From a virus (lineage: Duplodnaviria > Heunggongvirae > Uroviricota > Caudoviricetes), in IMG/VR virus record IMGVR_UViG_2737471830_000002: a stretch of 33,074 bases of DNA; one strand, given 5' to 3'. Below the pieces are notes generated by a model. That model was not told where the DNA came from. It saw only the letters and a program-made list of their open reading frames with translations, and did no database searches. The translations under genes were made by a program, and so were the position numbers. Shown here one piece after another: positions 13,977 to 21,202 of the stretch; the stretch's first letter is position 1; every line of letters begins with the position of its first letter.

Positions 13977-15475
13977 TTAAGTTCTCCGTGCGATGGGCCT
14001 GATTGGGGCTGGTATCTTTTTCTCTTTTGGTTTTTTGATGTCCCGCATCATTTTGGCGAAGCGGCGCATCATGTATGCATAGCGAACGGCTGAGAGAACG
14101 TCGTCGTTAAGCTTGACGATTTTCCCGTTTTCATCACGGTGATAGAGGCGGAACTCCTCAAAGAATGGCTCACATGTGTTGAATACTTTGAAGCGACCAT
14201 CAAGCATCATGTCGCGCAATTCAGTGATGCCTGGCTCAACAGCGTTACCGCCATCAGGCCATGTCGCATGCTCCTGCAGCATCATAAAACCAGCATCTGC
14301 ATACTGCCCTTTGAGCTGCTCACCGCCGCCCTTCTCGTGCTGGTTTCCGTCATGAGGCCATGCTGTTGGCACTTTATGCGCCCATGATTTAACAGCTCCC
14401 CATGCCTGAACGGCTGTTTTTTCTTTCGCCTTCCACACGCGTGAAACGTAGATTGTGTCTGCGTCCTTATCCCACCAAAGCTGAACCTGCGCCTGCGGGT
14501 GATCCCATCCGAAATCCATCCCGCCAATTACGTAGAAGTGATCAGGACACTCGAACGGCTGACACTTAATCGTCTCTTCCGGTATCTGGAAGATTCGACC
14601 ACTACCCATCGTAGGAATACCGCGAGCACGCGCCTCTCTCTCATGCTCAGGATAGGATGCGATGATTTGCTCTTTCTGCTCGTCGGTGTAGTGTTCAGCG
14701 TCATAGATGGTCATGTTGACCACTTTCTGAGACTTGCTGGGATTCTTCAGGAACTTGGTAACAACGTCAGACATCCCCATCAGCGGGGTAAACGTCAGAA
14801 TTGAGAATTGACCGTATTTGTTGGTACGGGTAAGGCCTTCGCCATAAATGCTGTATGGTGGTTCTTCGTCAAACCACACGCCGTGGATTGTGTCACCCTG
14901 CCAGCGAGCACGGCCTTGCGAGTATGGTTTGAAGTAGCAGATTGAAATACCATCTTCAACGCCATCAGCCGTGTGATGCTTAACCAGAAGGTGATCAACA
15001 AGGTTCGGAAAGAAAGGAGACTTCTTCCAGCTAATGATGTCTTCTTTCGGTATGGAACCGTAGCCTGGCTCATCATTCTCTTCGATACGACCACACAGGA
15101 TGCGTTGAGTCGTTTTGGTTACAGTCTCGTTTGTCTCGCCACCAATCCAGAAGACAACAGGCTCATAGAAACGCTTACCTTTCCACTCTCCGCCATATTT
15201 ACCATCAGCAGGATATCCTTTTGTTCCCGGATAAGCCCGGTAAGGTGAAACGCGACTTCGGCAGCACCAGTAAATGACTTACCAAGCTGGTTACCAGCCA
15301 TAAAACAGCGCTCTGGATAGTCATGCCCGGCGTCGATGAACTCACGCTGTTTGCTGTATGGCGTAAATTCATATAGCAGGTGTGTGTTCCGGTAGTTATC
15401 TTCTTCTTCGAGTAGCTCGAGCAATTCGATTTGCTCTTCGTCGCTCAGGTTATCAAGAATCGCGTCCAGTTCCAC
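13977..15475 (-). pseudogene. Terminase large subunit (P22 gp2-like) interrupted by a 1-nt frameshift near 15226..15245
   Basis: N-terminal ORF (15119..15475) carries Walker A AGNQLGKS then turns to nonsense and stops; the adjacent frame reads RAYPGTKGYPADGKYGGEWKGKRFYEPVVFWIGGETNETV... continuous with the 13977..14879 C-terminal ORF. Span is 1499 nt, one short of 500 codons. Confidence 0.8.
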
Positions 15476-15947
15476 GGTTGAATAGCTCCTTGATACGAGA
15501 GCGCCGCTTATCGCGATCTCCCTTATCAGGTGTCACGTCTTCAACTTGCGACTGCTCTTTGAGGCCCAAATCACGGGCGATGATGTTAGCGTTGAGAAGG
15601 TCAGCGGCTGCGCCAGAAAATTTCTGGTCGTAGATGATGTCTTCCGCTCGTGATGTGACGTCAGAAAAACCTTCCATTGACCGGAAGGTTCCCCATGTTT
15701 GCCTGGTGATATCAAGGAAGGTACACAATCCTGAAATAGTCATGGCTCGCATCTTAGGGACATTAGCCTTAATTATTTCTCCCTGATATGAAAATACCTT
15801 ACCCTCCCATAGCGGGTTATCATCAGCCCACTCGAAGTATTCACAACAAGCAGCCCACAGCGCCTCAGGCGATTCGAATTTAGGATTTCGCCCATGACTA
15901 CTGCGGGCCTCCCAAAATCGGTTGCCCTTTGGTGCTGCCATATTCAT
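15453..15947 (-). CDS. Terminase small subunit (P22 gp3-like)
   Basis: [38 protein letters not shown] matches P22 gp3; overlaps the large-subunit start. Confidence 0.8.
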
Positions 15948-15948
15948 C

Positions 15949-16140
15949 TCACTTAATTGTCATTTCTGGTCGTTGGCTCTTCATGCTTTCAATCAATGAC
16001 TGCTTCAGCAATTCGAGTGTGCCAATCGCCTCACATACACTGATTTCACCATAATCATGGATGACGCTTTCCAGCCGCTCGTATAGCTCTTGAGTAATTG
16101 GGAATTTCTTCTCCTTACCCAAATTGATTACGCGGCTCAC
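15949..16140 (-). CDS. Hypothetical small protein (63 aa)
   Basis: ORF tightly packed between upstream small ORF and terminase small subunit. Confidence 0.45.
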
Positions 16141-16141
16141 A

Positions 16142-16384
16142 TCATGCTCCGGTAGTGAACAGGTCTAACGCTTCCTTCGATTTACGCACCGCTTCGATAG
16201 TGCGAGATGTGAAGTCTGGATTTGCACCGCCATCGTTGTAGTGCAACTTGAACAATTCCAGTTTCAGCTGGTCAGCCCCAATGAATGCAAACGCTTCCTC
16301 TGCCGCTGAATTGTTCTTAGATAGCAGTCGGTAAATTTCTAACTTGAATTTCTGTTCTTCAGTCATGGGAATAATCTCTGCCAT
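16142..16384 (-). CDS. Hypothetical small protein (80 aa)
   Basis: ORF with a 1-nt gap to the next gene; a GGGATA-N10-TATCCC hairpin plus T-run lies just upstream. Confidence 0.45.
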   Translation of the reverse strand: MAEIIPMTEEQKFKLEIYRLLSKNNSAAEEAFAFIGADQLKLELFKLHYNDGGANPDFTSRTIEAVRKSKEALDLFTTGA

Positions 16385-16641
16385 TGTTGGCTCCGTTTAT
16401 CCGTTAAAAGGGATATCAGTTAAGTTATCCCGTGTAGGGTATAAGCCATTGTCGAGACCACTCATTGAATGGCCTCTGCAATAACCGATGTCTTTCCATC
16501 AGTCCGCCACCACAAAGAATCTTTTTTTGCCATAAGGCTGGAGGTTCATCTTTCAGTGGCTGCCAGTGTTATTTCCCCACTTTCTGGCTTGGGTTGTGTC
16601 GCTGTACTGCCGTAATGCAAGAACTGGATTAACCAGCAGAA

Positions 16642-17172
16642 TCACACCATTCCGGGCAAATACATTTGCACTTCATTTGCCGCTCTCTGACGTGCAACAT
16701 GAAGCAATCTTTTTCGCCCACCAACGCCCCACTTAGCCATTTGGCTTGCGCACTGGCTTATCGCTTTGGTTTCAGTATTGATGATGTGATCGATTCTATT
16801 CAGACGGGACATTGCGCCAACGCCGAGACGGACAACCGTTTTGAAAACTTCATAAACTTCGATTTCAAATTCCGGCTTAATCCATGCTGCATATCTGATT
16901 GCCAGAAGTTCAACACCCCACACACCTGGTTCTGCACCACCTTTGATTATTTTAAGTGGTTGAATTTGTTCCAAAGTGCTTTTTTGCACTTTGGCCTCCA
17001 GTGCTTTTATGAAGCGTTTTATCTGCGCGCTACGCAAAAACTGGCTTGGGCGCTGTTGCTCTGTAGCCTCTCCATTTGCAACTGCTGCTGCATGGAGATC
17101 GTTTAAGTTGTAGCGTCCATCCTCATCAACACGAACGGACACACCATTGACAATAACTGTTGGGTACTTCAT
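16642..17172 (-). CDS. KilA-N domain protein
   Basis: N-terminus VIVNGVSVRVDEDGRYNLNDLHAAA is typical of KilA-N/APSES-type domains; 176 aa. Confidence 0.6.
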   Translation of the reverse strand: MKYPTVIVNGVSVRVDEDGRYNLNDLHAAAVANGEATEQQRPSQFLRSAQIKRFIKALEAKVQKSTLEQIQPLKIIKGGAEPGVWGVELLAIRYAAWIKPEFEIEVYEVFKTVVRLGVGAMSRLNRIDHIINTETKAISQCASQMAKWGVGGRKRLLHVARQRAANEVQMYLPGMV

Positions 17173-17319
17173 CAGTGATTACCTTTTAGTGATGAACCTT
17201 GTCACACAGGATTCCGGCCCACAGAAAGGCACCGATCACCAAACCGGCATCCTCAAGGGTCATCCTGAAAGGTTCTGTGTTCAGAAGTCGCGCGTGTGAA
17301 GCGCGTTTACTGCGGACAT

Positions 17320-17342
17320 AAAAAAGCCCCGCATCGCGAGGC
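17320..17342 (-). terminator. Intrinsic terminator downstream of the lysis cassette
   Basis: Minus-strand RNA GCCUCGC-GAU-GCGGGGC (one G-U pair) followed by UUUUUU, directly after the Rz stop. Confidence 0.5.
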
Positions 17343-17374
17343 TCATTAAATGGACTTTGTGATTTGCAAAAAAA

Positions 17375-17812
17375 TTATTTCAGGCATTGCGTCCTGATGT
17401 ATTCCTGCAGATAGTTAACCTGCGCGGTTATCTTGTCGATTCCACTTCGGAGACGGTAATAATTGAGTTCAGCATCTGCTGTAAGTCCTGGGCTTTCTCC
17501 ATCGCCCATGCTGCTGGCTCCGGTCGTTGACTTTGCACAGGTGGCGGCGACTTGCAGGCGCTTACGACCAGCAGAAACATCAGCACGGAGACTTTCGATA
17601 GTCGCGTTAGCATCAGCAAGCTCCTTTGTGTATCTGGCGTCAAGTTCTGCTACATCACGTTGACGCTTCTGCATGTCAGCGATTGTGGATGTGGCTTTAT
17701 CGCGCTGCTCTTTGTAGGCGATGGCGTTATCACGGTAATGATTAACAGCCCATGACAGGCAGACGATGATGCAGATAACCAGAGCGGAGATAATCGCAGT
17801 TACTCTGCTCAT
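17375..17812 (-). CDS. Rz: Rz i-spanin
   Basis: 145 aa with N-terminal TM segment and coiled coil; follows R; contains an embedded +1-frame lipoprotein ORF. Confidence 0.8.
17428..17613 (-). CDS. Rz1: Rz1 o-spanin lipoprotein, embedded in Rz
   Basis: Signal peptide with lipobox VVSAC followed by a proline-rich segment ([12 protein letters not shown]); entirely within Rz in another frame. Confidence 0.65.
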
Positions 17813-18285
17813 ACCTCAATCTCTCTGACCGTTCCGCCAGCTTCTTTGAATTTTGCAATCAGGCTGTCAGCCTTATGCTCGAACTGACCATAACCAGCCC
17901 CCGGCAGTGAAGCCCAGATATTGCTGCAACGGTCGATTGCCTGACGAATATCACCGCGGTCAATCATCGGTAAAGCGCCACGCTCTTTAATCTGTTGCAA
18001 TGCCACAGCGTCCTGGCTTTTCGGAGAGAAGTCTTTCAGGCCAAGCTGCTTACGATAGGCATCCCACCAACGGGAAAGAAGCTGGTAACGTCCGGCTGCT
18101 GTTGATTTGAGTTTTGGGTTTAGCGTGACAAGTTTGCGAGGGTGATCGGAGTAATCGGTAAATAGCTCTCCGCCTACAATGACGTCATAACCATGATTTC
18201 TGGTTTTCTGACGTCCGTTATCAGTTCCCTCCGACCACGCCAGCATATCGAGGAACGCCTTACGTTGATTATTGATTTCCACCAT
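17809..18285 (-). CDS. R: Endolysin, lambda R-type lytic transglycosylase
   Basis: 158 aa, [39 protein letters not shown]..., near-identical to lambda R. Confidence 0.95.
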
Positions 18286-18592
18286 CTTCTACTCCGGCTT
18301 TTTTAGCAGCGAAGCGTTTGATAAGCGAACCAATCGAGTCAGTACCGATGTAGCCGATGAACACGCTCGTTATATAAGCGAGATTGCTACTTAGTCCGGC
18401 GAAGTCGAGAAGGTCACGAATGAACCAGGCGATAATGGCGCACATCGTTGCGTCGATTACTGTTTTTGTAAACGCACCGCCATTATATCTGCCGCGAAGG
18501 TACGCCATTGCAAACGCAAGGATTGCCCCGATGCCTTGTTCCTTTGCCGCGAGAATGGCGGCTAACAGGTCATGTTTTTCTGGCATCTTCAT
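18269..18592 (-). CDS. S: Holin/antiholin, lambda S-type
   Basis: 107 aa, [39 protein letters not shown]..., with MKM dual-start motif; near-identical to lambda S. Confidence 0.95.
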
Positions 18593-18883
18593 GTCTTACC
18601 CCCAATAAGGGGATTTGCTCTATTTAATTAGGAATAAGGTCGATTACTGATAGAACAAATCCAGGCTACTGTGTTTAGTAATCAGATTTGTTCGTGACCG
18701 ATATGCACGGGCAAAACGGCAGGAGGTTGTTAGCGCAGCCTCTTGCCACCCGCTTTCACGAAGCCAGCCATTACGCTGGTTTTCTTTTATGCAAAGCACA
18801 CCGCACCGTAGCCACAGCGGATAAGGTGATTATTTTTGTCTGTCTGGTATTTGGTTTGATGTGCTTTCAGAAAGGTCGTGATT

Positions 18884-18918
18884 AAAACGCAAAAAGCCCC
18901 GAGCTATTAACTCAGGGC
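18884..18918 (-). terminator. tR'-like intrinsic terminator shortly downstream of pR'
   Basis: Minus-strand hairpin GCCCUGAG-uuaauag-CUCGGGGC followed by UUUUUGCGUUUU, about 30 to 60 nt downstream of the predicted pR' start. Confidence 0.55.
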
Positions 18919-18947
18919 TTTATTTAACGAGTGCATTTATCCATCGT

Positions 18948-18984
18948 TGTGTCAAATTTACCCAACTTTATTCAAAAAGTCAAT
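18948..18984 (-). promoter_or_regulatory. Late promoter pR' with Q-utilization region
   Basis: Minus-strand TTGACT (18984..18979), 18-bp spacer, TAAATT (18960..18955); the stretch TTGACTTTTTGAATAAAGTTGGGTAAATTTGAC closely matches lambda pR'. Confidence 0.6.
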
Positions 18985-19025
18985 ATCATGCCGTAAAGAT
19001 GTTGCCATCCGTGGCAATCATGCCG

Positions 19026-19649
19026 CTAACGTGTGACCGCATTCAAAATATTGTCTGCGATTGACTCTTCCTTGTGGCATTGCACCACCAGAGCGTCATA
19101 CAGCGGCTTAACAGTGCGTGACCAGGTGGGTTGAGTAAGGTTTGGGATTAGCATCGTTACAGCGCGATATGCGGCGCTTGCTGGCATTCTTGAATAGCCG
19201 ACACCTTTGCATCTTCCGCATTCTTTCTCAACAACTCTCCCCCACTGCTCTGTTTTTGCTATATCAACCGCACGACCTGTACCGTGGCAATCTCTGCATC
19301 TTGCGCCCGGCGTCGCGGCACTACGGCAATAATCCGCATAAGCGAATGTTGCGAGTACTTGCAGTACCTTTGCCTTAGTATTTCCTTCGAGCTTTGCCAC
19401 ACCACGGTATTTCCCCGATACCTTGTGTGCAAATTGCATCAGATAGTTGATAGCCTTTTGTTTGTCGTTCTGGCTGAGTTCATGCTTACCGCAGAATGCA
19501 GCCATTCCGAATCCGGCTTGTGATTGCGCCATCCCCATAGCAGCCATCACATCAGTACCGGAAAGAGAGTCAGAAGCCGTAGCCCGTGGTGAGTCGCTCA
19601 TCATCGGGCTTTTTGGCGAATGAAATTTAGCTACGCTTTCGAGTCTCAT
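19026..19649 (-). CDS. Q: Late gene antiterminator Q (lambda-type)
   Basis: 207 aa, MRLESVAKFHSPKSPMMSDSPRATASDSLSG...CRDCHGTGRAVD...CGRCKGVGYS, near-identical to lambda Q. Confidence 0.9.
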   Translation of the reverse strand: MRLESVAKFHSPKSPMMSDSPRATASDSLSGTDVMAAMGMAQSQAGFGMAAFCGKHELSQNDKQKAINYLMQFAHKVSGKYRGVAKLEGNTKAKVLQVLATFAYADYCRSAATPGARCRDCHGTGRAVDIAKTEQWGRVVEKECGRCKGVGYSRMPASAAYRAVTMLIPNLTQPTWSRTVKPLYDALVVQCHKEESIADNILNAVTR

Positions 19650-19834
19650 GGCCTTCCCCTTTTGCCCTGTTTGACCATCAGGACGCCGTTAACTATTACG
19701 TGACGCTCGCCTTTGCTGTCTCGGTTGTACTTGAGCACTGTTCCTCTTGCGCAGGAAAGCATCCTCGCCACTTCGGTCTGATTGCCTCGTGTCTGGATAA
19801 GAAGCTCTGGTATCGTTTGAATTGTGGCGTTCAT
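19646..19834 (-). CDS. ninH: NinH-like protein
   Basis: 62 aa; YGNQTEVARMLSCARGTVLKY...VNGVLMV resembles lambda NinH. Confidence 0.65.
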   Translation of the reverse strand: MNATIQTIPELLIQTRGNQTEVARMLSCARGTVLKYNRDSKGERHVIVNGVLMVKQGKRGRP

Positions 19835-20193
19835 ACGTTCTCCAGTTCGGTGATTTTTATTCCAAGCCTTCCGCCTGGTACTTTCACACCACGAATTACG
19901 CGAATGTCATCGAATTGCTCGTCGTCTTCCGCAAATCCGGCGTGGATAAGGGAGTCGAGTAAACCTTTCAGGATGTTATCGAGGTCGCGGCGGCGGGAGT
20001 CTGGAACGTCTGCGATGACTTTGATGCGGAGTCGTGATTTGGTGAAAATGTCTAACTTAAGTTGGCGGATGATTTGCTGAACGTCTTTTCGGTATTTCTG
20101 GCCTTTATCGCTGATGTAGTATTGGCTTCCCCGTCTTCGCCAGTAGGTATTCACCGATGGCGGGTATGGAAGCACAAACTGATATTCGTTCAT
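19831..20193 (-). CDS. rusA: RusA-family Holliday junction resolvase
   Basis: 120 aa; LPYPPSVN...DSRRRDLDNILKGLLDSL...GGRLGIKITE matches the RusA catalytic core. Confidence 0.8.
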   Translation of the reverse strand: MNEYQFVLPYPPSVNTYWRRRGSQYYISDKGQKYRKDVQQIIRQLKLDIFTKSRLRIKVIADVPDSRRRDLDNILKGLLDSLIHAGFAEDDEQFDDIRVIRGVKVPGGRLGIKITELENV

Positions 20194-20480
20194 GACTTAA
20201 TCTTCCCCTCCTTCAGCAGTATCGCCTGCGTCCTGATCACGCCTTCGAGGTGGTAAAGTCTGGCGTCTTTGTTGTCGAGGTTATGGGTGCGTCGGTCGAT
20301 TTCATCGTGACACGCGCTACAAGCCCATGCGCCGATCAGGTCGTCAGGCTTCATTCCCGTTCCGCAAATTCCAGCCATCCGGTAATGTGCCAGAACTGTA
20401 GTTTCAGGATTGCCATTGCATACGCCGTAAATACGTACCTGGCATTCTCTGCCGCGTGCTTCTTTGCGTAGGTTAGCCAT
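20190..20480 (-). CDS. YbcO-like (DUF1364) protein
   Basis: 96 aa, Cys-rich; lies immediately upstream of rusA as ybcO does in the DLP12 prophage. Confidence 0.55.
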   Translation of the reverse strand: MANLRKEARGRECQVRIYGVCNGNPETTVLAHYRMAGICGTGMKPDDLIGAWACSACHDEIDRRTHNLDNKDARLYHLEGVIRTQAILLKEGKIKS

Positions 20481-21202
20481 TAAGCAGCCTCCCCTGTTAC
20501 TTTCAGCATTCCGTTATCGAGAAGCTTTCTGGTCAGCCACTGTTGACCACGCCCGGTGATTTTTGTGGTGAACGATATCTGTATTCCGTGATTTGTGTTG
20601 ACCGCTGTTTCTTTCACTGTGAAATAGCCGCGATCCATATATTCCTGCATTGGCACATTGCGCCGGGAACCTGAAGCAATAAGGATTTTGTGATCGCGCA
20701 TCCATGCAAACAGTTTGTTTGGACCAATACCAACAACCTTTGCATAGTTTCCAATCAAAATTCCGCTGGCCTCGCCAACGCGATCGGCAAACTCAACTTT
20801 AGGTGCGGCAATTGCGAGCTGGTTTTCCAGTTGCATTTTCTGCTCAGCAAGATCAGCAGCAAGGCGCAACGCTTCTGGTAGCGTTTTGGGGATATTAACC
20901 GCAGTTTCTTCAAGCTCTCGCCAACGGTCAACAAGACGAGCGGTGAATTCCGGCGACAACTGGGCAACAACGACAATACTGTCTCGCTTACCTTGTTCGC
21001 CTTCGAAGACGTAATGCTCGTACTGAACATTGAACCCTAAGTTATTGATTCTTTCGAAAACCTCAATTTGAGGAAGCCGGATAACACCATTTTTAGCCAG
21101 CGTTTCGATGGTACGCTTCACATTGTCATGACGCTTACCAACCAACTCAGCGATTTCAATGCTTGTCATTTTGATGGCATTGCCATTTATTAACTCATTC
21201 AT
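20480..21202 (-). CDS. Rha/Roi-like phage regulatory protein with antirepressor (KilA-C/ANT) C-terminal domain
   Basis: 240 aa; N-terminal HTH-like segment MTSIEIAELVGKRHDNVKRTIETLAK; located in the nin region where roi sits in HK022/HK97. Confidence 0.6.
   Translation of the reverse strand: MNELINGNAIKMTSIEIAELVGKRHDNVKRTIETLAKNGVIRLPQIEVFERINNLGFNVQYEHYVFEGEQGKRDSIVVVAQLSPEFTARLVDRWRELEETAVNIPKTLPEALRLAADLAEQKMQLENQLAIAAPKVEFADRVGEASGILIGNYAKVVGIGPNKLFAWMRDHKILIASGSRRNVPMQEYMDRGYFTVKETAVNTNHGIQISFTTKITGRGQQWLTRKLLDNGMLKVTGEAA

Follow-up and report, generated by a model that had tools for sequence, protein, structure and literature searches.

A short-leader late-gene switch and lysis module in a probable P22-like Escherichia coli prophage

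The window is the whole 33,074-nucleotide stretch of Caudoviricetes virus DNA that was analysed. Its positions 17375–19649, together with the flanking DNA considered here, carry the following features, given with the evidence for each.

19026..19649, minus strand: Q late-gene antiterminator, 207 aa, type 1 (lambda/P22 gp23 class); protein identity and Pfam PF03589
18955..18983, minus strand: late promoter pR′, TTGACT-17-TAAATT; promoter scan and alignment with lambda and P22
18943..18948, minus strand: predicted start (+1 = 18948) and AACGAT (+1 to +6), the pause-inducing element of qut; lambda homology
18889..18948, minus strand: predicted constitutive short leader RNA of about 57–60 nt; fold of a 65-nt stretch and the P22 counterpart at 37887–37945
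18884..18921, minus strand: intrinsic terminator tR′ (t late), with the hairpin at 18921..18893 followed by UUUUUGCGUUUU to 18884; terminator scan and fold
18764..18883, minus strand: HK97/Sf101-type leader block (+66 to +185); segment identities
18593..18763, minus strand: lambda-type 5′ untranslated region of S, with a stem-loop just upstream of the S start; alignment
18269..18592, minus strand: S holin/antiholin, two start codons (18592 for S107, 18586 for S105); lambda identity and PF05106
17809..18285, minus strand: R, lambda-type endolysin (transglycosylase); lambda identity and structure match
17375..17812, minus strand: Rz i-spanin, 145 aa; PF03245 and identities
17428..17613, minus strand: Rz1 o-spanin lipoprotein, 61 aa, lying within Rz in its +1 frame; PF06085
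17324..17344, minus strand: intrinsic terminator within the late operon, following Rz; terminator scan
16642..17172, minus strand: KilA-N gene directly after Rz; no match with P22 Rha
15453..15947, minus strand: small terminase subunit of the P22 gene 3 type, opening the P22-like module; 82% aa identity to P22 gp3 and PF16677

Q, pR′, tR′, S, R, Rz, and Rz1 thus all share one strand. Q is identical to lambda Q at 206 of 207 residues and matches PF03589 with E=1.3e-57, and the product of P22 gene 23 (gp23) is 97.6% identical to the same protein. Lambda Q can reportedly stand in for P22 gp23 and vice versa (PMC8022706), and for both reasons Q is not diagnostic of a lambda origin. NinH directly abuts Q in the window; in HK97, HK022, and HK544, NinI lies upstream of Q.

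Downstream of Q, the −35 hexamer TTGACT, the 17-nt spacer, and the −10 hexamer TAAATT align base for base with lambda pR′, with two mismatches in the spacer, and the segment from −35 to −1 is 97% identical to the P late promoter annotated in P22. In lambda, the pR′ spacer is the location of the Q-binding element. The AACGAT at +1 to +6 is the same as in lambda at the homologous position, and +1 is therefore placed by homology at 18948; elements of this −10-like type act as σ70-dependent pause inducers within qut (PMC5001585). The short allele carries GGA at +7 to +9, where lambda has GGG, and A at +17, where lambda has G; judging from mutational data on phage 82 (PMC5001585), these differences could weaken the pause. 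The sequence components of a type-1 Q module are all present: a Q of that class, the σ70 promoter pR′ just downstream of Q with the spacer that holds the Q-binding element, a −10-like pause element, and an intrinsic terminator before the first late gene.

The tR′ hairpin has a folding energy of −19.1 kcal/mol (z = −5.2), and 0 of 200 shuffled sequences fold as well. The whole 65-nt leader stretch folds at −23.3 kcal/mol (z = −4.6), with a predicted layout of a 5′ hairpin (+1 to +23), an A/U-rich linker, and the terminator hairpin. With both RNA ends placed by homology and prediction, the leader would end at around +57 to +60, as against 194 nt in lambda. The promoter-to-terminator unit is 95%–100% identical between the window and P22: +1 to +23 is 100% identical, and the terminator segment is 95% identical to a P22 terminator annotated as antiterminated by gp23. 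The curated P22 record BK000583 places PR′ at 37852–37880, the 5′ nucleotide of the late RNA at 37887, and "t late or tR'; antiterminated by gene 23 protein" at 37917–37945 (+31 to +59), giving a 59-nt leader.

The original prediction had put a terminator at 18884..18918, tens of nucleotides from the pR′ start, and this is essentially correct, the hairpin at 18921..18893 lying about 30–60 nt from it; likewise, its short transcript of about 60 nt in place of lambda's ~194 nt agrees with the leader of about 57–60 nt predicted here from homology. Its view of a promoter-proximal tR′ as a departure from the norm must be given up, given the P22 annotation and the frequency of the short form (see below): the seemingly "unusually close" terminator is the one annotated in phage P22 and is present in hundreds of related phages.

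Among 18 distinct leader variants, the hairpin showed no double-sided changes, and these sequences are too alike for covariation to be informative; support for the hairpin therefore comes from thermodynamics, conservation, and the P22 annotation. No known Rfam family covers the leader, and a permissive search of positions 16000–21000 gave only two sub-threshold chance hits. The literature searched yielded no account of a short leader in HK022/HK97, and searches for BTP1/P22 small RNAs were likewise unproductive. A 65-aa open reading frame on the plus strand (18688..18885) overlaps the leader and terminator and is probably spurious, the open frame being its sole support; both Sf101 and a record labelled DH5alpha list it as hypothetical.

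Between the terminator and S, the window and lambda part company. Homology to lambda stops at around +23 (18926, equivalent to lambda 44609), and the leader matches lambda 6S RNA neither in body sequence, nor in length, nor in its tR′ hairpin. Window positions 18925–18764 (162 bp) stand in place of an unrelated lambda segment, 44610–45014 (405 bp), which contains the 6S RNA body, lambda tR′, orf-64, and the LPR2 probe site (the probe sequence was taken from the supplement of bioRxiv 10.1101/2024.10.31.621285, and its position in lambda was set by eye). The short leader differs from lambda only by lambda's longer unrelated insert, running from around +24 to a point 171 bp upstream of S. The block at 18764..18883 is 96%–99% identical to HK544 and Sf101, 71% identical to P22, and unrelated to lambda. 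The 171 bp immediately upstream of S are again lambda-like (98.2% identity, compared with 72% to P22).

The lysis genes continue this pattern. S is identical to lambda S at 106 of 107 residues and 89.6% identical to P22 gp13, with the Met-Lys-Met dual start retained. R is identical to lambda R at 156 of 158 residues and matches the lambda lysozyme structure (PDB 1AM7, E=2.6e-105); P22 has the unrelated lysozyme gp19 in this place, and gp19 gave no tblastn match in the window. Rz changes allegiance along its length: the 5′ third is lambda-like and the remainder is of the P22 gene 15 type, so that the protein as a whole is 57% identical to lambda Rz and 89% identical to P22 gp15. The distal Rz/Rz1 DNA is 93% identical to the P22 gene 15 type, as against 45% for lambda, and Rz1 is 95% identical to P22 Rz1; the motif LLVVSAC in the Rz1 frame translation is taken as the lipoprotein signal. 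The cassette is thus of the lambda type in its components—a dual-start class I holin, the lambda transglycosylase, and an embedded spanin pair—though its Rz/Rz1 allele is of the P22 type. The site in HK544 that is homologous to 17324..17344 is annotated as a rho-independent terminator.

Beyond the lysis genes, tblastn recovers P22 genes 3, 2, 1, 8, 5, 4, 10, 26, 7, 20, and 16 and the N-terminus of 9 in P22 order, at 33%–92% amino acid identity; gene 14 is the sole member of the series 3-2-1-8-5-4-10-26-14-7-20-16-9 for which tblastn found no match. The tailspike (gene 9) is conserved only in its N-terminal 124 aa. The closest DNA matches of this downstream region are the Lederbergvirus phages IME10 and Louie (~95%). 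The gene for the terminase large subunit (TerL) carries a 1-bp deletion at about 15235 and is frameshifted; on this basis, the prophage copy may be defective, in which case the switch would no longer matter. The closest prophages in complete E. coli genomes show ~96.6%–96.9% identity over 90%–92% of 12 kb, with an exact match in none.

On the model of lambda and P22 biology, these elements would be expected to provide promoter activity, a pause, defined RNA ends, and Q-dependent read-through. The promoter pR′ would fire constitutively, and RNA polymerase that has retained σ70 would pause at around +16/+17 as σ70 rebinds the −10-like AACGAT at +1 to +6; a σ70-dependent pause mechanism of this kind has been described (PMC5001585). 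Without Q, the polymerase would resume and terminate at the hairpin and U-tract (+28 to +58), releasing a leader of about 57–60 nt. Q produced from the early-right operon would instead bind its site in the promoter spacer and load onto the paused polymerase, rendering it resistant to termination. Read-through of tR′ and of the post-Rz terminator would then permit transcription of S, R, and Rz/Rz1, followed by the P22-type head and tail genes. In phages 21, phi80, 82, and P22, the late promoters are reported to yield short RNAs that are regulated by antitermination (PMC7547250).

The short form is widespread. Exactly this short pR′–tR′ unit is present at 69 of 124 sampled pR′ loci of the lambda Q type, a frequency close to that of the lambda 6S form among such loci, and the short-leader block occurs in 262 of 5,426 complete E. 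coli genomes. The unit from +1 to +58 is nearly invariant, and the sequences beyond it are swapped between phages: it precedes at least five unrelated downstream sequences, with divergence starting right after the U-tract, which indicates that promoter and terminator move together as one module. A record labelled DH5alpha, considered as a possible phi80 late region, was rejected as such, as the locus belongs to a P22-like prophage with the same nin–Q–lysis–terminase layout and is not evidently phi80.

How, then, did this region arise? Two stretches align with lambda DNA: window 19655–18926 with lambda 43879–44609 (95.8% identity) and window 18763–17564 with lambda 45015–46235 (93.4%), separated by the unrelated 18925–18764. 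The original prediction, which proposed alignment with lambda and P22 as its check, envisaged a lambda late-regulatory and lysis cassette grafted onto a P22-like module, with a clear mosaic junction after Rz. On such an account, the cassette would have recombined as one unit, and the short tR′ would be a derived peculiarity of the hybrid. Its observation that Q, S, and R are near-identical to lambda was borne out (all three proteins are at least 98.7% identical), as was the lambda-like character of the sequence just upstream of S, and the late structural genes are indeed P22-like. The identities of the individual segments, however, contradict a single graft: promoter, leader, and terminator are 95%–100% identical to P22, as against 74%–91% or unrelated for lambda, and the distal Rz/Rz1 is likewise of the P22 type. 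The region is a mosaic, but similarity to lambda ends inside Rz, at around 17564, rather than after it, and only around 18763–17700 (S and R, with the 171 bp that precede S and the opening third of Rz) is, by these alignments, lambda-like rather than P22-like. Both this Q (97.6%) and this short tR′ also occur in P22 itself. Nor is the patchwork peculiar to this prophage, since the siphoviruses HK97, HK022, and HK544 have it too; over the full 2,275 bp, identity is 96.6%–97.5% in HK544, HK022, HK97, and Sf101 and 93.6% in epsilon34. Carriers of the patchwork include both siphoviruses and P22-like podoviruses. Recombination of the cassette as one unit is thus very unlikely. The related claim that everything downstream of Rz is P22-like holds for the order of the morphogenesis genes, but the KilA-N gene directly after Rz has no match with P22 Rha. 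Positions 17375–19649 are very probably an ordinary late-gene switch with its lysis genes, in an E. coli prophage of the P22-like (Lederbergvirus) kind.

Two further readings concern the short RNA and its terminator. In lysogens, the pR′ leader might serve as a trans-acting, possibly Hfq-bound small RNA in the manner of StxS (PMC7547250) or of the proposal made for lambda 6S RNA; Hfq dependence has been reported for the lambda small RNAs 6S and LPR2 (bioRxiv 10.1101/2024.10.31.621285). The constitutive promoter, the A/U-rich linker (UAAAUAAA) directly 5′ of the terminator hairpin, and the U tail can be read as typical of Hfq-binding small RNAs, and +1 to +58 has stayed near-invariant despite the swapped downstream sequences. 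That conservation is explained equally well by retention of qut, pause, and terminator; moreover, the U tail runs for just 5 nt before GCG, Rfam contains no match, and an inverted hairpin loop is tolerated in Sf101. A small-RNA role for the leader is therefore unlikely, and it is similarly doubtful that the ~58-nt leader of P22, HK97, HK022, and hundreds of E. coli prophages would constitute a functional lysogen small RNA, a second and unrelated counterpart of 6S and StxS. Any role of the short RNA beyond termination is putative, suggested by sequence features. The alternative that the proximal hairpin is a weak or bidirectional terminator, mainly insulating against antisense transcription, with the real late-gene terminator further downstream, is most improbable. 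The hairpin is near-palindromic, its plus-strand fold (−13.5 kcal/mol) is followed by UUUAUUU, it is found in inverted orientation in Sf101, and there are two other sites to consider: a plus-strand terminator-like site at 18760–18783 and, ~150 nt upstream of S, a lambda-like hairpin that carries GUUUUG. The late-direction hairpin is nevertheless the stronger of the two (−19.1 versus −13.5 kcal/mol) and has the better U-tract; the inverted orientation occurs in only 1 of 18 distinct short-leader sequences (67 loci), that of Sf101 itself; and P22 curators place t late at the proximal site. The hairpin ~150 nt upstream of S was rejected as the real tR′, as it has a 4-U tail only and, in the alignments inspected, arm mismatches in the window, HK544, and Sf101. 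In Sf101, the inversion lowers late-direction stability from −19.1 to −13.0 kcal/mol, and such a loop flip of a palindromic terminator could tune basal leakage of the lysis genes.

The late switch and lysis module is an ordinary one and already known: the allele is common to P22, HK97, HK022, Sf101, and epsilon34. Its discovery value is accordingly small, this being a textbook lambdoid late switch whose allele has been annotated in P22 and sequenced many times. The analysis does correct a lambda-centred assumption, in that phages of the lambda Q type carry either of two leader alleles at roughly equal frequency, the 194-nt 6S form and the 59-nt P22-type form. The Hfq-associated 6S and LPR2 RNAs both fall in the segment missing here, and hence their proposed functions would be dispensable or replaced in many related phages. 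Many GenBank records also leave tR′ unannotated or overlay dubious reading frames on it; in the three that were opened (HK544, epsilon34, and Sf101), either PR′/qut or nothing is marked, and tR′ is marked in none.

Of the known systems, P22 resembles the window in Q/gp23 (97.6%), the promoter (97%), +1 to +23 (100%), the terminator (95%) and its equal distance from the start, Rz (89%), Rz1 (95%), and morphogenesis gene order. It differs in that S and the sequence upstream of S are lambda-type in the window (89% and 72% to P22), in the +66 to +185 block (71%), in having rha where the window has the KilA-N gene, and in host, which is E. coli for the window and not Salmonella. HK97, HK022, HK544, the mEp phages, Sf101, IME10, and epsilon34 share the Q–S–R–Rz cassette and the patchwork of lambda and P22 segments, although the siphoviruses HK97, HK022, and HK544 differ in their head and tail genes. 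Lambda shares Q, the pR′/qut core, AACGAT, the S and R genes, the 171 bp leading up to S, and the initial third of Rz at 92%–99%, and the control logic is presumably the same; its 194-nt leader, however, ends at a different and larger hairpin (−26.9 kcal/mol), the window is without the 6S RNA body, orf-64, and LPR2 region, and lambda Rz/Rz1 is distally unrelated. StxS, the pR′–tR′ RNA of Stx phages, is likewise a short RNA that lysogens make constitutively when the late transcript terminates early, but it belongs with another Q type and arises as a 258-nt primary transcript processed by RNase E to 74 nt (PMC7547250); sequence similarity to the window leader is not to be expected. StxS has been shown to bind Hfq and to activate RpoS (PMC7547250), whereas the window leader is a candidate by its sequence features.

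Q, S, and R of the cassette encode proteins near-identical to those of lambda (206/207, 106/107, and 156/158 aa, respectively), as the original prediction had held, and R matches lambda lysozyme (PDB 1AM7, E=2.6e-105). Identity to lambda falls to ~57% for Rz. Among P22 proteins, gp23, likewise 207 aa in the curated record BK000583, shares 97.6% identity with window Q, gp15 89% with Rz, and P22 Rz1 95% with Rz1. Lambda Q and P22 gp23 are reportedly interchangeable (PMC8022706). The genes and signals are as follows.

19649..19026, minus: Q (ORF listing and translation; Pfam PF03589)
18983..18955, minus: pR' promoter, TTGACT-17-TAAATT (promoter scan)
18921..18893, minus: tR' terminator hairpin, then UUUUUGCGUUUU (terminator scan)
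18592..18269, minus: S (ORF listing and translation; PF05106)
18285..17809, minus: R (ORF listing and translation; PDB 1AM7 match)
17812..17375, minus: Rz (ORF listing and translation; PF03245)
17613..17428, minus: Rz1, nested within Rz (ORF listing and translation; PF06085)
17344..17324, minus: strong intrinsic terminator directly after Rz (terminator scan; homologous HK544 site annotated as a terminator)
17172..16642, minus: KilA-N domain gene (Pfam)

At the DNA level, window 19655-18926 corresponds to lambda 43879-44609 (95.8%) and window 18763-17564 to lambda 45015-46235 (93.4%); between them, the window carries 162 bp unrelated to the 405 bp found in lambda (44610-45014). The 171 bp upstream of S are lambda-like, as predicted. 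Lambda-like and P22-like segments are both present, but the similarity to lambda ends within Rz and not, as had been proposed, after it. Nor is the region a single lambda cassette: promoter, leader, terminator, and distal Rz are of P22 type, and the lambda-like portion missing from P22 is restricted to ~18763-17700. The observation behind the original prediction is confirmed and its interpretation partly supported.

Identity to the window by segment (lambda; P22; HK544)
Q: 96.8%; 95.4%; 97.6%
pR' (-35..-1): 91%; 97%; 97%
+1..+23: 83%; 100%; 100%
+24..+65: unrelated; 95%; 100%
+66..+185: unrelated; 71%; 96%
171 bp before S: 98%; 72%; 98%
S: 99%; 89%; 100%
R: 96.5%; unrelated; 97%
Rz 5' third: 95%; 80%; 97%
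Rz 3' part: 45%; 94%; 97%

The start of Q (19649) is directly overlapped by NinH (19646-19834, minus), and the NinI phosphatase (present in lambda and HK544) and NinZ (present in P22) are both missing next to Q. The module boundary is sharp, with similarity to lambda, P22, HK544, epsilon34, and Sf101 starting in every case within 10 bp of the Q start codon.

The window and lambda pR' promoters align base for base with two spacer mismatches, and both are followed at +1..+6 by AACGAT, the -10-like pause element; +1 was therefore placed by homology at 18948. Together with the positions of promoter, hairpin, and U-tract, this yields a predicted RNA of ~57-60 nt, in keeping with the promoter-proximal tR' and ~60-nt leader originally proposed. 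The tR' hairpin folds at -19.1 kcal/mol (z = -5.2; none of 200 shuffles as stable) and the entire leader at -23.3 kcal/mol (z = -4.6). By homology to lambda and P22, pR' would be constitutive, and sigma70 rebinding AACGAT would pause polymerase at ~+16/17, a mechanism described in PMC5001585. Without Q, transcripts would terminate at the hairpin (~+58); Q loaded at the pause would permit read-through of tR' and later terminators, extending transcription to the lysis and morphogenesis genes. The short distance between pause and terminator is compatible with the scheme, because Q loading would precede synthesis of the hairpin; going by its curated annotation, P22 operates in the same manner. An independent function of the short RNA, comparable to StxS (PMC7547250), is unlikely. 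Rfam has no family for the short leader. Its 18 distinct variants, lacking compensatory changes, are uninformative as to covariation.

In the Sf101 record (L004), the 29 bp of the terminator hairpin (2229-2257) are exactly those of window 18893-18921 in reverse complement, a flip of loop and arm inside a near-palindrome. Read in the late direction, a U·G pair becomes a C·A mismatch and stability drops from -19.1 to -13.0 kcal/mol; only Sf101's own sequence, 1 of 18 distinct short leaders (67 loci), is inverted. Antisense to the late leader lie a terminator-like hairpin with a T-run (18760-18783, plus) and a 65-aa ORF overlapping the leader (18688-18885, plus), whose homologues in Sf101 and a DH5alpha-labelled record are "hypothetical"; no functional evidence was found for either. 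Upstream of S, a lambda-like hairpin GGCAGGAGGT...ACCTCCTGCC-GUUUUG (window 18700-18745, minus; lambda ~45030-45075) is mismatched at two arm positions in the window, with other mismatches in HK544 and Sf101, and looks unconstrained as a terminator.

The full 2,275 bp are matched at full coverage in HK544, ECP1, mEp234, Sf101, Gally, HK022, and HK97 (96.6-97.5%), and at 93.6% in epsilon34 and g341c; in all, coverage reaches 80% or more in 54 phage records. As the cassette occurs in both lambda-like siphoviruses and P22-like podoviruses, it is a freely exchanged module. PR' and qut are marked in the HK544 and epsilon34 records, with tR' unmarked, and none of these is marked in Sf101. An exact pattern of the Q-lambda-type pR'/qut core was sought in viral contigs (120 listed) and reference loci, a sample and not a census; among the matches listed (124 sites including reference loci), 69 carry the short P22-type leader and 55 the lambda 6S type. 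In the window, +1 and the S start codon are 356 nt apart, the modal spacing among the short forms sampled. At least five unrelated sequence classes start directly after the U-tract of the short terminator in the sampled loci, some returning to lambda-like post-tR' sequence; hence promoter, leader, and terminator act as a single conserved unit, whose 3' edge marks a recombination boundary. In a set of 5,426 complete E. coli genomes, the short-type block is present in 262 and the lambda-type block in 218 (coverage at least 80%). The short-leader late switch is a known, widespread module and of low interest. One record labelled E. coli DH5alpha (NZ_CP026085.1, 1453244-1461428) holds a P22-like prophage laid out as in the window (NinF, KilAC, DUF1364, RusA, NinH, Q, S, R, terminase), unexpected in DH5alpha, which suggests a mislabelled strain or an acquired prophage.

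Elsewhere in the window, P22 proteins 3, 2, 1, 8, 5, 4, 10, 26, 7, 20, and 16, plus protein 9 in its N-terminal domain, are matched in P22 order (33-92% identity). DNA similarity is highest to IME10 and Louie, both Lederbergvirus phages (~95%), and the early region has the nin/replication mosaic usual in lambdoid phages. The interval from Rz to gene 3 contains an intrinsic terminator, the KilA-N gene, and small conserved ORFs. The terminator (17344..17324) is inside the late operon, upstream of the packaging genes, and is presumably passed by Q-modified polymerase. The KilA-N gene occupies a variable slot between lysis genes and terminase, with short conserved flanks (16615-16325), and this looks like a moron-type replaceable slot. 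The gene shows no DNA similarity to its KilA-domain counterpart in that position in HK544, and P22 Rha has no match in the window. The terminase large-subunit gene (~15476..13977, minus) has a 1-bp deletion at 15230-15240 when compared with IME10 and P22 (loss of the G after ACCGGGC), which shifts the frame past ~codon 80 and splits TerL over two frames, reflecting either a defective prophage or a sequencing error.

Compared with lambda, the window lacks a segment (44610-45014) containing most of 6S RNA, lambda tR', orf-64, and, as placed by eye, the northern probe site for LPR2, a recently reported small RNA (probe sequence from the supplement to bioRxiv 10.1101/2024.10.31.621285). The short allele also differs from lambda in GGA for GGG at +7..+9 and A for G at +17, changes that might shorten the pause, by analogy with phage 82 mutational data (PMC5001585). 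In P22, the arrangement is the same: BK000583 has "P late or P R'" (37852-37880), the 5' nucleotide of the late RNA (37887), and "t late or t R'; antiterminated by gene 23 protein" (37917-37945), giving a 59-nt leader. A short late RNA from P22 was reported in earlier work, as cited in PMC7547250. The P22 promoter-to-terminator sequence is approximately that of the window, the main difference being the hairpin loop; this annotation and the segment identities thus show the short leader to be the native P22 state.
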